Sequence record: MT446422.1
Source of the DNA: Escherichia virus TH57
DNA length: 64,000 nucleotides
Reading direction: 5' to 3' (one strand)
This document shows positions 22,018-27,169 of the stretch, in pieces. A program made the translations under genes and the position numbers. Under the pieces are notes generated by a model. That model was not told where the DNA came from, ran no database searches, and worked only from the letters and a program-made list of their open reading frames with translations. Position 1 is the stretch's first letter; every line of letters begins with the position of its first letter.

Positions 22018-22335
22018 ATGAAAACTATTGATTGCAAAGCGGAATACAAAGTTTATTATCATGGCTCAAGCTCTAATGCTGGAATCCAAAATATGCTTTG
22101 CCCTCCTGATGCAACTGGTGTTCTGTCAGAAGTTGGGCGCAAGAAAAATTTAGGGCGTGTGTTTTTTACTGAAGATATTGGTTTGGCCCGTATCTATGCA
22201 GGAAGAGCAGCTCGCTCGTATGGAGGAGAACCCCGTCTTTATCGTGTGATTGCACCTGTTGACGTGGTTTGTTTAAATGATACTAAAGGTGCTACAGTTT
22301 ATCACGCTGACTGGGCCTTCTGTGAGGAAATCTAA
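22018..22335 (+). CDS. truncated ADP-ribosyltransferase-fold protein (Mod/Arr-like mini-ART)
   Basis: 105 aa. YYHGS...(29 aa)...GRVFFTEDIGLARIYAG parallels LYRGV...(22 aa)...GRITSFTEDYGIARDFAA of the Mod-type ART at 29063 in this window, with Arg->His and Ser->Phe at motif positions. Ends before the ExE region. Has its own early promoter. Confidence 0.45.
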   Translation: MKTIDCKAEYKVYYHGSSSNAGIQNMLCPPDATGVLSEVGRKKNLGRVFFTEDIGLARIYAGRAARSYGGEPRLYRVIAPVDVVCLNDTKGATVYHADWAFCEEI

Positions 22336-22548
22336 ATGTATAAATTAGAGAACGTAGTGTTTATTGGTTGGTTTGAAAATGGTAATATGTTTACCAAAGA
22401 AACTGCACTAGATGTTAGCGACCAAAATATGATTGAATGGGTCACAGTGCAGTATGCAGAAGTGAATAATGCGCTGGTGAAAGCCTTTGTTAATGACAAT
22501 AAAGTTTTTGAATATGATTATCGTATCCACTTATCTGAGGAAATCTAA
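22336..22548 (+). CDS. dmd: Dmd (discriminator of mRNA degradation; antitoxin against RnlA/LsoA)
   Basis: 70 aa. VVFIGWFENGNMFTKE...YAEVNNALVKAFVNDNKV matches recalled T4 Dmd (VVFMGWFKNESMFTKE...YAEVNKALVKAFIDDKKV). Adjacent to 41, as T4 61.5. Confidence 0.8.
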   Translation: MYKLENVVFIGWFENGNMFTKETALDVSDQNMIEWVTVQYAEVNNALVKAFVNDNKVFEYDYRIHLSEEI

Positions 22549-22890
22549 ATGGCTTTTAATCCAGAAGACCGCGTAAAAGTAACAATCAAAGTGAGTGCTG
22601 TTGGTGTACCATCTTTTGAACGTTCTAGCATGTTCCACCCAGCAGGTATTCACTGGTATGTCCAGAAGACTGCTGATAACTATAATGCACTGGTTGAAGC
22701 TTTTGTTGATGACAAGCTAATTCATAAAGTAGACATGCGTAAGGGTACTGCATTGCGTAATCTGATTTTGACCGTTGAAGCTCAACTGGTAAATGAAGAA
22801 ATCTGCCTTACTGATATTGAAGCAGCTCTTCATATTGCGCGTGCTGAATATTACAACTTGACTGGTTTTTCAGTTGAAGGCGAAAAATAA
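22549..22890 (+). CDS. Dmd-like paralog (113 aa), position of T4 61.4
   Basis: ADNYNALVEAFVDDKLIHKVDMR parallels AEVNNALVKAFVNDNKVFEYDYR of the preceding gene. The identical 16-nt junction TGAGGAAATCTAAATG precedes both genes. Confidence 0.55.
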   Translation: MAFNPEDRVKVTIKVSAVGVPSFERSSMFHPAGIHWYVQKTADNYNALVEAFVDDKLIHKVDMRKGTALRNLILTVEAQLVNEEICLTDIEAALHIARAEYYNLTGFSVEGEK

Positions 22891-23243: not shown

Positions 23244-23681
23244 ATGATTAACAGAAATTTGGTTATCAAAAAACTTCGCTGTAAAAATCCAAATGCGCAA
23301 GCATACAGAGTGTTTTGGAGCGACGAGATTCAATATCTGGGTTATTTTCTTGTTGACAGTGATAATAGAATTACGTTTGCTCATAAGCTTCTTAACAAAG
23401 AATTAAACCATTGGCAAGAACTTATTGCAGTCAAGTCTAAATTATTTTCATGCAATGCAATGCACCAATTGGTTTATTTTTTCGCTGATGGTATTCCTGA
23501 CAAGGTTGAGTTTGAAGGGTTTGAATTTAAAGACATCAATCCAGACAATGAATTGAATAATGATGTTGTTAATATGGGTATCCCTGGTAAGTACATCAAA
23601 AACAGTCTTTTGAAAATTCTGGAAAATCCTGTTTATTCAGTTGACGACCAAATTTTTAATGCCTTTATGAAGCGAGATTAA
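23244..23681 (+). CDS. hypothetical protein (145 aa) with DDQIFNAFMKR tail
   Basis: ATG 23244 just after the sp stop (the track ORF extends back over sp). The C-terminal 12 aa are shared with the next ORF. Position of T4 61.2/61.1. Confidence 0.6.
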   Translation: MINRNLVIKKLRCKNPNAQAYRVFWSDEIQYLGYFLVDSDNRITFAHKLLNKELNHWQELIAVKSKLFSCNAMHQLVYFFADGIPDKVEFEGFEFKDINPDNELNNDVVNMGIPGKYIKNSLLKILENPVYSVDDQIFNAFMKRD

Positions 23682-23682
23682 T

Positions 23683-24039
23683 ATGAGTTATTATAATTTT
23701 CTGAATTTTGAACTGGCCAGCAATAATGATGGTAATGCTCGTTATGAATTTCGTGAGCCTCGGTTTAATCAGGCGATTGGTTATATTATCGTTAAAGATG
23801 ATGTTATCATAAAGGCTCGCTCATTTATGGTAATGGATGGACCTTATGAAGATACTCGTGGATACCCATTTGATAAAAAGAATGTGCGCGATTGCGCAAT
23901 CTGGATAACTGGGAACCCTGAAATTGGGGTCATGATATCTACTGAAGCGAATGACATTCTGGAAGGGGTAGCCAAAGCTCAAGAACCGCCTACTGATATT
24001 GATGACCAGATTTTTAATGCCTTCATGAAGCGAGGTTAA
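23683..24039 (+). CDS. hypothetical protein (118 aa) with DDQIFNAFMKR tail
   Basis: ORF track. C-terminus IDDQIFNAFMKRG versus VDDQIFNAFMKRD in the upstream ORF. The 43-nt junctions are about 88 percent identical. Confidence 0.6.
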   Translation: MSYYNFLNFELASNNDGNARYEFREPRFNQAIGYIIVKDDVIIKARSFMVMDGPYEDTRGYPFDKKNVRDCAIWITGNPEIGVMISTEANDILEGVAKAQEPPTDIDDQIFNAFMKRG

Positions 24040-24040
24040 T

Positions 24041-24262
24041 ATGTTTGTTTTGACCCAATTCTCTAAAGCAATATATAGTTACTCTTGCCAGTGGGAAGTC
24101 TTTATTGATACTCCTTCGCCTAAGTATGGTGTTTTTGGACGAGTAACTACTCAAGCTTATGTTGCACGACCGACTAAACGTCAGATTCGTAAACTTAAAA
24201 AGGCACATCGTCAATTGATTAAAAGAAGGGAACAATATGAGTGCAATGTGTACGGGCTCTAA
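24041..24262 (+). CDS. hypothetical basic protein (73 aa), RPTK-tail family
   Basis: ORF track. YVARPTKRQIRKLKKAHRQ resembles YTRPTKKMIRQFKRLHR of ORF 433..609. Confidence 0.55.
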   Translation: MFVLTQFSKAIYSYSCQWEVFIDTPSPKYGVFGRVTTQAYVARPTKRQIRKLKKAHRQLIKRREQYECNVYGL

Positions 24263-24428
24263 GATTTCGGTCTTCCAGATTTTTGAAGAATATGAAATCG
24301 TGTCGCAAGACCAAGAAGCAATCCATGTTATCGCTGATGATGGTGTTACCTGGATTATTCCGTTGTATCATGAAGACACTTATGAAGTGACTGATGCAAA
24401 TGGTGATAAAGCTATCTTCGTTGTATAA
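24237..24428 (+). CDS. hypothetical acidic protein (63 aa)
   Basis: ORF track. AAGGGAACAAT-ATG. Confidence 0.5.
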   Translation: MSAMCTGSKISVFQIFEEYEIVSQDQEAIHVIADDGVTWIIPLYHEDTYEVTDANGDKAIFVV

Positions 24429-24431
24429 ATA
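24424..24431 (+). promoter_or_regulatory. late promoter
   Basis: Perfect TATAAATA, 16 nt before ATG 24448. Confidence 0.7.
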
Positions 24432-24447
24432 GCGGAAAGGGGGTGTT

Positions 24448-24615
24448 ATGAAAACATTCAAAGATTTTATAAACGAAGATATGGTTGCCGGTGATGCAGG
24501 TGGAAACCCAACTAATATCGCAACAGGTACCACTTCCGGGGCAGTTGTCAATAAAGGCCCTGAACAAATCCCATCAAAAAAGCGTAAGAACAAAGACGAT
24601 AAACCTACAGTATAA
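24448..24615 (+). CDS. small late protein (55 aa) with internal-protein-type capsid targeting sequence
   Basis: Below the track cutoff. Perfect late promoter TATAAATA 24424-24431, SD AAAGGGGG. MKTFKDFINE-DMVAGDAGGNPTNIATGTTSGAVVNKGPEQIPSKKRKNKDDKPTV. The first 10 aa parallel the T4 IPIII CTS MKTYQEFIAE. Confidence 0.6.
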   Translation: MKTFKDFINEDMVAGDAGGNPTNIATGTTSGAVVNKGPEQIPSKKRKNKDDKPTV

Positions 24616-24632
24616 TGGTCCCCCGGGACCAT
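24615..24632 (+). other. GC-rich hairpin just upstream of the gene 61 SD
   Basis: ATGGTCCC-CC-GGGACCAT (contains CCCGGG). No U-run. SD GAGGAAA follows at about 24639. Confidence 0.45.
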
Positions 24633-24647
24633 TGAAATGAGGAAACT

Positions 24648-25676
24648 ATGTCATATATTGATAAAGAATTTGCGGTCAGAGCTTTATCGTATCAACCACG
24701 TTATAGAGAAGTCACCGGGAGCACATTTAAAGCAAACTGTCGTTGTAAGGTTTGCGGGGACTCCCAGAAAGATTCACATAAGGCTCGATTCTGGGCGTAT
24801 ACCAATCCGTCTGATGGTGCGGTTTACGTGAAATGTTTTAACTGTGACTACTCCACGCATATAAGCAAATACATAAAAGAGTTTGAGCCGGATTTGCACC
24901 GGGAATATATGGTTGAGAAGTACAAGGAAAATGCCTTCGGTCGACAACGTAATGAAGTTGCAGAAACTCCGAAAGAACCAGAAAAAACTCCGGTTATTGA
25001 AGAGCTTGCTTTTTGCGAAAGAATCGATACTTTACCAGAAGCACATCCGATAGTTAAGTATGTGAAAAGTCGGTGTATTCCGAGCAATGTTTGGAACCGG
25101 TTATGGTTTACAAACAAATGGCCTGCATTAGTTAACTCCGTTAATCCTGGGACGTATAAGAATGAAACGAATGAACCACGCTTGGTTATTCCTATCTTCA
25201 ACGGCAAAAAAGAAATCGAATCTTTCCAAGGACGAGCTCTTCGCAAAGATGCACCACAAAAATATATCACAATCAAAGCTCACCCAGAAGCTTCCAAAGT
25301 CTATGGCGTAGACAAGATTGATGAGCGCAAGCGCGTGTGGGTAATGGAAGGTCCGATTGATAGTTTGTTTATCCCTAACAGCATTGCGATAACCGGTGGA
25401 ACATTAGCATTGGAAGCCGTTCCTTATGCTGAAACCCGAGTATGGGTAATGGACAACGAGCCAAGACATCCGGATACGATTAAACGTATGAAGAAACTCG
25501 TTGAAGCTGGCGAAGCTGTTATGTTCTGGGACAATGCACCATGGCATACGAAAGACATAAATGAGATGGTTAAATCGGAGGGTGCAACCCCTGAACAAAT
25601 CGAATCATATATGGCCGATAACGTTGCTCAAGGGCTGATGGCGAGAATGCGACTTTCGAAGTACGCAAAAGTTTAG
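24648..25676 (+). CDS. 61: DNA primase gp61
   Basis: 342 aa, as in T4. Zinc ribbon CRCKVCGDS...CFNC. EPRLVIPIFN, TOPRIM EGPIDSLF, DNEPRHPDTIKRM, MRLSKYAK. Confidence 0.96.
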   Translation: MSYIDKEFAVRALSYQPRYREVTGSTFKANCRCKVCGDSQKDSHKARFWAYTNPSDGAVYVKCFNCDYSTHISKYIKEFEPDLHREYMVEKYKENAFGRQRNEVAETPKEPEKTPVIEELAFCERIDTLPEAHPIVKYVKSRCIPSNVWNRLWFTNKWPALVNSVNPGTYKNETNEPRLVIPIFNGKKEIESFQGRALRKDAPQKYITIKAHPEASKVYGVDKIDERKRVWVMEGPIDSLFIPNSIAITGGTLALEAVPYAETRVWVMDNEPRHPDTIKRMKKLVEAGEAVMFWDNAPWHTKDINEMVKSEGATPEQIESYMADNVAQGLMARMRLSKYAKV

Positions 25677-26868: not shown

Positions 26869-26876
26869 TATAAATA
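26869..26876 (+). promoter_or_regulatory. late promoter (soc)
   Basis: Perfect TATAAATA, 31 nt before the soc ATG. Confidence 0.8.
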
Positions 26877-26907
26877 CACCTGTAATTAAACATCAAAGGA
26901 GTTTATT

Positions 26908-27141
26908 ATGGGTGGTTTCGTTAATATCAAAACCTTCACGCATGCAGCTGGTGAAGGTAAAGAAGTTAAAGGTACTGAGGTTTCAGTTCCATTTGAAATC
27001 TATTCTGATGCGCATCGTATTGCTAATGCTCATTATCAGACTTTCCCTTCGGCCGTTGCAGCCTATTCTACCGTAGTGACTGATGCTGCTGACTGGAAGA
27101 CCAAGAACGAGGCAATGTTTACGCCGACCGATATTGTTTAA
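26908..27141 (+). CDS. soc: Small outer capsid protein Soc
   Basis: 77 aa. FVNIKTF...GTEVSVPFEIYSDAHRIANAHYQTFPSAVAAYSTV matches recalled T4 Soc. A perfect late promoter lies upstream. Confidence 0.9.
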   Translation: MGGFVNIKTFTHAAGEGKEVKGTEVSVPFEIYSDAHRIANAHYQTFPSAVAAYSTVVTDAADWKTKNEAMFTPTDIV

Positions 27142-27146
27142 TTATA

Positions 27147-27169
27147 GGGAACCTTCGGGTTCCCTTTTT
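27147..27169 (+). terminator. rho-independent terminator after soc
   Basis: GGGAACC-TTCG-GGTTCCC plus T5. Confidence 0.8.

Follow-up and report, generated by a model that had tools for sequence, protein, structure and literature searches.

Gene 61.1 of a VR7-type T-even phage encodes a conserved, probably head-targeted paralog of the maturation junction of the major capsid protein

The 64,000-nt stretch of Escherichia virus TH57 DNA (MT446422.1) analysed here, hereafter the window, belongs to a VR7/SP18-type T-even phage (98% to TH54). Directly upstream of gene 61 it carries a 55-aa ORF that, by sequence similarity and synteny, is the ortholog of T4 gene 61.1 (NP_049649). Judged from its sequence, the product is probably a conserved head-targeted peptide, paralogous to the maturation junction of the capsid protein itself. 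Residues 1-46 align as a paralog of gp23 ~54-102, a region that takes in the propeptide end, the gp23* N-fist and a basic patch, with the gp21 cleavage sites falling exactly in register; this relationship was overlooked in the first-pass annotation. We favour, at a probability of about 0.5, the reading that 61.1 is a prohead-targeted, gp21-processed and head-associated peptide that arose from a partial copy of gene 23.

The encoded peptide is 100% identical to VR7 gp61.1 and 86% identical to T4 gp61.1 over residues 1-42, and it matched the PHROGs family phrog_1823 (E 1e-32, residues 1-52). Both the short and the long form of 61.1 matched only families of unknown function in PHROGs and no family in Pfam. 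The gene adjoins gene 61 from T4 to KVP40 and was listed among the ORFs without function conserved in T4, RB69, RB49, RB43, 44RR and Aeh1 (Nolan et al. 2006, PMC1524935). The first-pass annotation had described a new gene at an odd locus, a view that has to be dropped for an ORF syntenic with gene 61 and on that list since 2006. No discussion of 61.1 function was found in the literature accessible for search, and its anatomy as a copy of the gp23 junction, in a gene already known, appears to be unreported there.

By tblastn, 61.1 is kept in hundreds of phage records, the total of 1,518 also counting records matched via gp23 only. The pN/pS ratio of ~0.25-0.29 indicates purifying selection on both leader (0.25) and core. 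Conservation, pN/pS and the detection of an ortholog as protein establish 61.1 as a real gene. The same evidence ruled out a chance ORF as well as the antisense ORF 24219-24632 as a real gene, and purifying selection ruled out a degenerate gene-23 fragment. The late promoter motif overlapping the upstream stop, the strong Shine-Dalgarno sequence followed by an ATG, and the 55-aa frame starting with the leader were all verified at their positions (Table 1). In the neighbourhood of 61.1, the window encodes Dmd, a Dmd-like fusion, spackle and two AdfA-like paralogs; the T4 neighbours are dmd, 61.4 (tifA), sp and 61.2 (adfA).

Table 1. Features of the 61.1 locus, with positions in the window
Feature	Position	Strand	Remarks
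Upstream 63-aa ORF (phrog_3249)	24237..24428	+	Kept 5' of short and long 61.1 forms
T4-type late promoter motif TATAAATA	24424..24431	+	Overlaps TAA stop (24426-24428) of upstream ORF; promoter function predicted
Shine-Dalgarno sequence AAAGGGGG	24436..24443	+	4 nt 5' of ATG
55-aa ORF (61.1)	24448..24615	+	ATG at 24448; reads MKTFKDFINEDMVAGDAGGNPTNIATGTTSGAVVNKGPEQIPSKKRKNKDDKPTV
61.1 leader, residues 1-10 (MKTFKDFINE)	24448..24477	+	CTS-like; corresponds to gp23 56-65; ends I-N-E, a gp21-type (L/I)-x-E site
61.1 core, residues 11-38 (DMVAGDAGGNPTNIATGTTSGAVVNKGP)	24478..24561	+	Paralog of gp23* N-fist (gp23 66-93); near-invariant in both forms
61.1 C-terminal part, residues 39-55 (EQIPSKKRKNKDDKPTV), and stop	24562..24615	+	Lys/Arg cluster aligned to gp23 MVRR (98-101)
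GC-rich hairpin, stop codon included	24613..24634	+	9 pairs, loop CCCG, -16.5 kcal/mol, z -2.73
Gene 61 (DNA primase)	24648..25676	+	Conserved 3' neighbour of 61.1

Residues 2-46 of 61.1 aligned with T4 gp23 57-101 without gaps, at 44% identity (E 5e-11), and F-I-N-E|D of 61.1 was placed opposite F-L-T-E|A of gp23, which is the E65|A66 maturation cut. In profile-profile comparison, the short-form profile matched gp23 (96.7%, E 3.7e-10; hhalign) and the long-form profile matched gp23 54-102 (96.8%, E 2.8e-10). In the long form, EIFEALP-LFE|DMVAGD was aligned to KIAQAFGSFLTE|AEIGGD of gp23. The extent of this profile alignment puts the start of the shared gp23-like module ~11 residues ahead of the cut, and the short form consists essentially of this module. 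Significant PDB matches were to gp23 chains only, over residues 58-94. Genes annotated as major capsid in Serratia, Aeromonas and Vibrio phages were also among the hits of the database-wide tblastn search, which explains why annotation pipelines label 61.1 a 'major capsid (domain) protein'. No HK97-fold body (A, P and I domains) was found in 61.1, only gp23 ~54-102 being matched, and Pfam returned no hit. Because the HK97 body is missing, 61.1 is not a capsid protein, and it is misleadingly named 'major capsid domain-containing protein' in databases.

Residues 66-91 of gp23* form the N-fist (PMC7136217), which touches four subunits, helps to build the Soc sites and is missing from gp24* (PMC9958956). 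In the unexpanded prohead, gp23 66-105 is disordered and internal and is thought to be in contact with the gp22 core or scaffold; the head-length mutations A66D, A94V and G97S map within this stretch (PMC9546572). The 61.1 core is likewise predicted to be disordered. A Gol/Lit-type decoy was rejected, as the homology ends at gp23 P93, where the Gol region, which we take to be 93-122, starts. Covariation between 61.1 cores and the N-fist of the same phage's gp23 was examined in 33 contig pairs and was uninformative because the gp23 N-fist is practically invariant across these pairs. Hints came from two exceptions only: the KVP40 61.1 has 18/29 identities to its own N-fist versus 13/29 to the T4 N-fist, and in one lineage 61.1 reads GGYDADNIA, as does gp23 (GYDAxNIA).

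The leader MKTFKDFINE is identical at 8/10 positions to the start of VR7 Ip6 (MKTYQEFINE), a sequence that also begins VR7 ORF153c, while VR7 Ip10 and ORF127c begin MKTYQEFITE. T4 gp61.1 starts with MKTFKEFIKE, of which the first 7 residues are those of T4 IPI (MKTFKEF) and 8/10 are shared with IPII and IPIII, whose N-terminus is MKTYQEFIAE. A scan for the capsid targeting sequence (CTS) pattern over ~150 kb on both strands, covering the window and the T4, VR7 and CC31 loci, returned only ip genes, 61.1 and CC31 uvsW.1. The proposal that the leader is of the T4 internal-protein CTS type was thus upheld. The I-N-E|D of 61.1 also stands in register with gp23 L-T-E|A. The P1' residue at the predicted gp21 site is Asp in window 61.1 versus Ala/Ser at known gp21 sites. 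Since gp23 56-65, the 61.1 leader and the CTS resemble one another, the end of the gp23 propeptide may be what the CTS derives from or mimics.

Comparison of 42 related loci revealed two forms of 61.1. Phages of the T4, VR7 and RB69 types, with some others, have the short form (52-56 aa). The long form (~155 aa) is that of most other genera, including CC31, RB49-like phages, Acinetobacter phages, phiR1-RT/TG1 and KVP40; in it, an unrelated, mostly helical N-domain of ~105 aa replaces the leader. The core MVAGDxGGxxxNIAxGTTxGAxxNKGP and the Lys/Arg cluster are near-invariant in both forms (42 loci, KVP40/Octan). Immediately ahead of MVAGD, 20/20 diverse long forms have (L/I/M/V)-x-E-x and every short form has hydrophobic-x-E. 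The MKTYQEFIAE-type sequence, present in window 61.1, is missing from the long-form orthologs and from the L029 clade; a short-form clade other than that of the window 61.1 begins MTLLEKYKQSLSE. The first-pass reading had made the conservation of MKT(F/Y)x(D/E)FIxE among homologs decisive, and many homologs, among them those with the N-domain, do not have it. Its basic tail (KKRKNK) reduces to a short conserved Lys/Arg cluster, beyond which the tail is variable, and the T4 mature peptide is net acidic.

The N-domain alone matched 1,872 clusters at 50% identity and the unknown-function families phrog_18642 and phrog_2086. It extends to Kyanoviridae, and pelagiphage HTVC008M joins it to a different C-terminus. 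Since the N-domain is kept in Kyanoviridae with other C-termini, the family has a function that head targeting does not explain. No similarity was found between the N-domain and T4 gp22 or gp68. The AlphaFold2 model of the long form had a mean pLDDT of 61.5, too low for a meaningful fold search. The N-domain is present in outgroups, so the short form is read as the derived state, and from these comparisons it looks like a minimal module.

In T4 late genes, the late promoter motif lies ~10 bp upstream of the late 5' end and acts in a gp55/gp33/gp45-dependent manner. A single TATAAATA motif in the AT-rich window is within chance (7 copies observed versus 5.1 expected; 24/100 shuffles reached 7). 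Its conserved position is beyond chance: five diverged clades with differing flanks have a perfect TATAAATA 21-35 nt 5' of the 61.1 start, and one-off variants occur at this place in another clade (AATAAATA) and elsewhere (GATAAATA, ATTAAATA and GTTAAATA). T4 61.1 has the one-mismatch motif TATGAATA at -21. An A at -13 is the commonest natural late-promoter variant in T4 (9/50 sites), and other T4-like phages show little conservation at -13 (PMC2988020, PMC1524935). The T4 61.1 mRNA has been classed as early and its protein was undetected in the time-resolved proteome of infected cells; in the same table, the ipII and ipIII mRNAs are 'early' and their proteins 'late' (PMC9697503, Table S2). 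In KVP40, 61.1 has no late motif, and the 61.1 start and the stop of the helicase gene 5' of it overlap. The T4 and KVP40 cases weaken late-only expression of 61.1. The first-pass description of a late-promoter-driven ORF finds support in a motif position conserved in several lineages, and is tempered by the T4 mismatch, the early T4 mRNA and the motif-free KVP40 gene.

Downstream of the 61.1 stop, a GC hairpin carries a T-run in several lineages, which makes the locus a self-contained promoter-ORF-terminator unit, as in lineage L018. The hairpin in the window is stable but without a T-run, so a late transcript would run on into gene 61, and the late promoter could equally serve gene 61. A further copy of TATAAATA at 26869 precedes a soc-like ORF ending in a terminator, indicating that late units embedded on the + strand are normal in this window.

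Association of a 61.1 ortholog with phage particles comes from phiR1-RT, whose g036 product (Gp036) is a 160-aa long form. Gp036 was detected in purified particles by LC-MS/MS with a score of 44.13, 61.88% coverage and 9 unique peptides, and was re-annotated by the authors as a putative structural protein (Mohanraj et al. 2019, PMC6893735, Tables S3 and S4). It ranked level with gp12 (10 peptides) and gp2 (11) and above thymidylate synthase, DNA polymerase and dCTPase (3-4 each), and the preparation also held replication enzymes, with gp32, lysozyme and gp57B at levels similar to Gp036 (PMC6893735). Given those similar levels, carry-over of Gp036 is possible. The 99 covered residues necessarily include the N-domain, which is therefore not simply a discarded propeptide. 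The predicted cut site falls within a 39-residue tryptic peptide (predicted cleaved end SMVAGN... versus uncleaved ELPVLESMVAGN...VVNK), so the MS coverage does not discriminate between cleaved and uncleaved forms. The 52-aa, CTS-type product of phiR1-RT g134 (MKTYIEFINE...) was found in particles as well (PMC6893735 data), indicating that tiny CTS peptides can be packaged. The first-pass claim that the product enters the head gains support from this long-form ortholog, in a preparation with carry-over proteins. No particle proteome was found in the papers on fPS-phages and fHyAci03; fHy-Eco03 is not T4-like.

On the favoured reading, the 55-residue pro-peptide is a free-standing copy of gp23 ~54-102 made up of a 10-residue amphipathic leader, a 28-residue Gly/Thr-rich N-fist-like segment and a short Lys/Arg cluster. 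The leader, ending in Ile-Asn-Glu, is the counterpart of both the gp23 propeptide end and the internal-protein CTS. The peptide would be made late from TATAAATA at 24424, and possibly earlier too via read-through from upstream. It may then be recruited to the prohead through the leader, the N-fist-like segment or both, by binding to the scaffold core as is thought for internal proteins and the gp23 N-terminal region. The gp21 prohead protease is predicted to cut after Glu10, and a ~4.6 kDa intrinsically disordered peptide (DMVAGD...) would remain associated with the head. The near-invariant mature part, the homology to the capsid protein and a position by gene 61 that is fixed even in KVP40 favour a housekeeping role in assembly or structure. 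These sequence comparisons point to a function in head assembly or stability rather than host-specific counter-defence.

To an assembly factor that is not kept in the virion we give a modest chance. As a competitor or chaperone-like regulator active in the cell or the prohead, the free junction and N-fist might, for example, occupy the gp23 docking sites on the gp22 core, tune head length or expansion, or buffer gp21 activity, and would then be degraded or escape through capsomer pores along with the peptides of the scaffold. The early T4 transcript and the translationally coupled KVP40 gene would fit such a factor, as would the disordered core and the head-length mutations A66D, A94V and G97S in the homologous, supposedly scaffold-contacting gp23 region. 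To our knowledge, T4 head studies have never listed 61.1 as a component, which also counts in its favour. A head-initiation factor, gene 40, belongs to the same 'early' cluster; T4 gp40 is listed as a head vertex assembly chaperone (PMC9697503, Table S2), and phiR1-RT g041, annotated 'Phage capsid and scaffold', sits at the position equivalent to gene 40. Against loss from the virion stand the particle data for the phiR1-RT ortholog, which place it level with true structural proteins, and the resemblance of the late motif and CTS-like leader to those of retained internal proteins.

A role as capsid cement seems unlikely. With no N-fist on gp24*, N-fist-accepting sites would be left vacant on the hexamers next to gp24 pentamers or the portal, and the cleaved free N-fist might fill them, stabilising the expanded shell or completing Soc sites. 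Such a role is suggested by the homology of the 61.1 core to an element that touches four subunits and helps to form Soc sites, by the extreme conservation of both the core and the gp23 N-fist, by the KVP40 61.1 being nearer to its own N-fist (18/29 versus 13/29) and by the lineage that copies GYDAxNIA. It is at odds with the T4 prolate-head and portal-vertex cryo-EM papers examined, which mention no unassigned density, and with the gp24* N-terminus, which already reaches onto neighbouring hexamers (PMC9546572). No general covariation was seen, the gp23 N-fist being invariant, and a free peptide would have to cross from the inside of the shell to the outside.

The first-pass annotation preferred an injected anti-defence peptide, packaged by its CTS, trimmed by gp21 and ejected with the DNA to block a host defence as IPI* blocks GmrSD. 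We consider this improbable. The CTS-like leader, the late promoter motif and the particle-associated ortholog agree with it, as do the nearby Dmd, spackle and AdfA-like genes; Srikant et al. call the region an anti-TA island and suggest other genes there as candidates. The idea of anti-defence is based only on this neighbourhood and the analogy with IPI. T-even internal proteins are described as highly diverse, with the CTS alone conserved (PMC3012670), whereas the mature part of 61.1 is homologous to a capsid element and hardly varies between T4 and the phages of Acinetobacter and Vibrio. Moreover, in phages such as KVP40, 61.1 stays by gene 61 where none of the surrounding genes within ~5 kb is annotated as a T4 anti-TA gene, and searches of Pfam and PHROGs linked it to no named protein. 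Overall, the first-pass account is partly supported: the CTS-like leader, the conserved motif position and the proposed head destination survive from it, and the novelty, the conserved MKT N-terminus and the basic tail do not.

A replication accessory working with the neighbouring genes 41 and 61, in which the gp23 and CTS similarities are evolutionary relics, is very improbable: strict family-wide synteny between the helicase and primase genes, the early class of the T4 mRNA and the conservation of the N-domain independently of the gp23-like module speak for it, but T-even phages lost the N-domain and keep the gp23-like module under purifying selection, the register of the cleavage site is conserved and an ortholog is particle-associated.

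Should 61.1 encode a head peptide processed by gp21, then the present list of T4 head components lacks an entry. We tentatively raise the idea, which we hold as less probable than not by a wide way, that 61.1 may be an unrecognised T4 head component, a gp21-cut copy of the junction and N-fist that fills empty N-fist sites or competes for scaffold docking and thereby tunes assembly. A free N-fist paralog would provide a handle on the gp23 N-terminal region, where head-length mutations lie, and on its interaction with the scaffold. The CTS is in wide use for loading T4 nanoparticles with foreign proteins, and a link between the CTS and the gp23 junction would suggest what the prohead core or the protease recognises. 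If the CTS indeed derives from or mimics the gp23 propeptide end, 61.1 would be an evolutionary link from the capsid protein to the injected internal proteins. The analysis also corrects the recurrent mis-annotation of 61.1 as 'major capsid protein' and concerns one of the few ORFs without assigned function conserved across T4-like phages (PMC1524935).

Among known systems, 61.1 may be closest in its working to a CTS-bearing internal protein, by analogy and minus the hypervariable mature part encoded in ip loci. With T4 IPI, IPII and IPIII and the T-even Ip proteins it shares the 10-mer MKT(Y/F)x(E/D)F(I/V)xE ending in the (L/I)-x-E gp21 site, the small size and the late-promoter motif, and its ortholog was found in particles. 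Unlike these proteins, 61.1 lies outside the ip loci, and its mature part is homologous to gp23 and conserved across genera rather than hypervariable (42 loci, KVP40/Octan); in most 61.1 genera the CTS is swapped for the ~105-aa domain, and P1' is Asp, not Ala/Ser. With gp23 ~54-102 it shares 44-48 gapless columns with the cut in register and disorder outside the expanded lattice, but it is only about 40% identical to it and lacks the HK97 body, a Pfam Gp23 match and the Gol region. The long form (phrog_2086; CC31 61.1, KVP40.0019 and phiR1-RT Gp036) shares the core, the Lys/Arg cluster, the cleavage-type motif, the position, the promoter motif and the 3' hairpin, and differs by the phrog_18642-like helical N-domain, widespread in the T4 superfamily and missing from window 61.1.

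The prohead core proteins gp67, gp68 and gp22 give rise to small head peptides, among them the internal peptides. Like 61.1, they are small, and they assemble in the core and are cut by gp21 at (L/I)-x-E to leave short peptides in or near the head, a fate that is predicted for 61.1. They differ from it in having no sequence similarity and in their genes, which lie in the 20-24 head cluster, and their peptides are acidic scaffold remnants rather than capsid paralogs.

In phiR1-RT, T4 and CC31, UvsW.1 (76 aa) carries a leader resembling the capsid targeting sequence (CTS) of T4 internal proteins and ending in L/I-x-E|A (MIKPFKEILQE|A, MLLEFKQFLYE|A and MKTFEEVIYE|A among the three phages). A perfect TATAAATA lies ~35 nt upstream of the phiR1-RT gene, and LC-MS/MS of purified phiR1-RT particles detected its product with a very high score (196.7), 71% coverage and 8 peptides. 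UvsW.1 is possibly a second protein that is packaged into the head but has gone unrecognised. Additionally, phiR1-RT g134, with the N-terminus MKTYIEFINE and two peptides detected in particles, illustrates how small a packaged CTS peptide can be. In Pelagibacter phage HTVC008M, the very basic ORF beside the homolog of the 61.1 N-terminal domain starts with MRTYRAFKKDPDVVE, which loosely resembles a CTS-type start; this likeness may be due to chance.

Coordinates of the features discussed (L-numbers denote loci outside the window)
Feature	Source	Position	Setting
uvsW.1 (76 aa; g188)	phiR1-RT, L103	253-483	outside window
uvsW.1 frame	T4, L104	~2710-2940	outside window
uvsW.1	CC31, L047	18572-18802	outside window
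g134 (52 aa)	phiR1-RT, L105	8421-8579	flanked by tRNA genes
123-aa ORF	HTVC008M, L048	4603-4974	directly downstream of N-domain homolog
61.1	IMG/VR contig 2706796756, L027	2501-2668	
TATAAATA	window	26869-26876	5' of soc-like ORF
soc-like ORF	window	26908-27141	between TATAAATA and hairpin
Terminator-like hairpin	window	27146-27165	3' of soc-like ORF
105-aa ORF, phrog_2110 (unknown function)	window	22018-22335	immediately 3' of gene 41
Dmd	window	22336-22548	within region 22336-22890
phrog_8539 ORF	window	23244-23681	adjoins phrog_4122 ORF
phrog_4122 ORF	window	23683-24039	adjoins phrog_8539 ORF

The 61.1 core of the IMG/VR contig reads GDGGYDADNIA, as in gp23 (GDHGYDAQNIA), whereas the usual 61.1 has GGNPxNIA; the likeness points to gene conversion involving gene 23 and 61.1. 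Many lineages (L007-L012 and L022-L045; e.g., L008 at ~2660-2700) share TGATATAATGG at the 61.1 stop codon, giving a perfect TATAAT directly 5' of the hairpin that follows the stop. This TATAAT may serve gene 61 as a -10 element or may belong to the hairpin context. T4 lacks TGATATAATGG and the TATAAT at this stop, and its gene 61 starts 3 nt past it.

Window positions 26869-27165 make up a late unit that sits inside the early region, 2.3 kb 3' of 61.1. The gp23 N-fist (residues 66-91 of gp23*) forms part of the Soc binding sites.

The region of phage UPEC07 corresponding to 22018-22335 contains a feature annotated as 'nucleotidyltransferase', a possible counterpart of the phrog_2110 ORF. The 113-aa ORF that follows Dmd, and shares the region 22336-22890 with it, likewise matches the Dmd family (phrog_2102) over its residues 30-65 and appears to be a paralog or fusion of Dmd-like type. 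The phrog_8539 and phrog_4122 ORFs appear to form an anti-DarT-like pair, duplicated or diversified; both C-termini read DDQIFNAFMKR(D/G), resembling the end of T4 gp61.2/AdfA (…DDQIFNAFMNRG).
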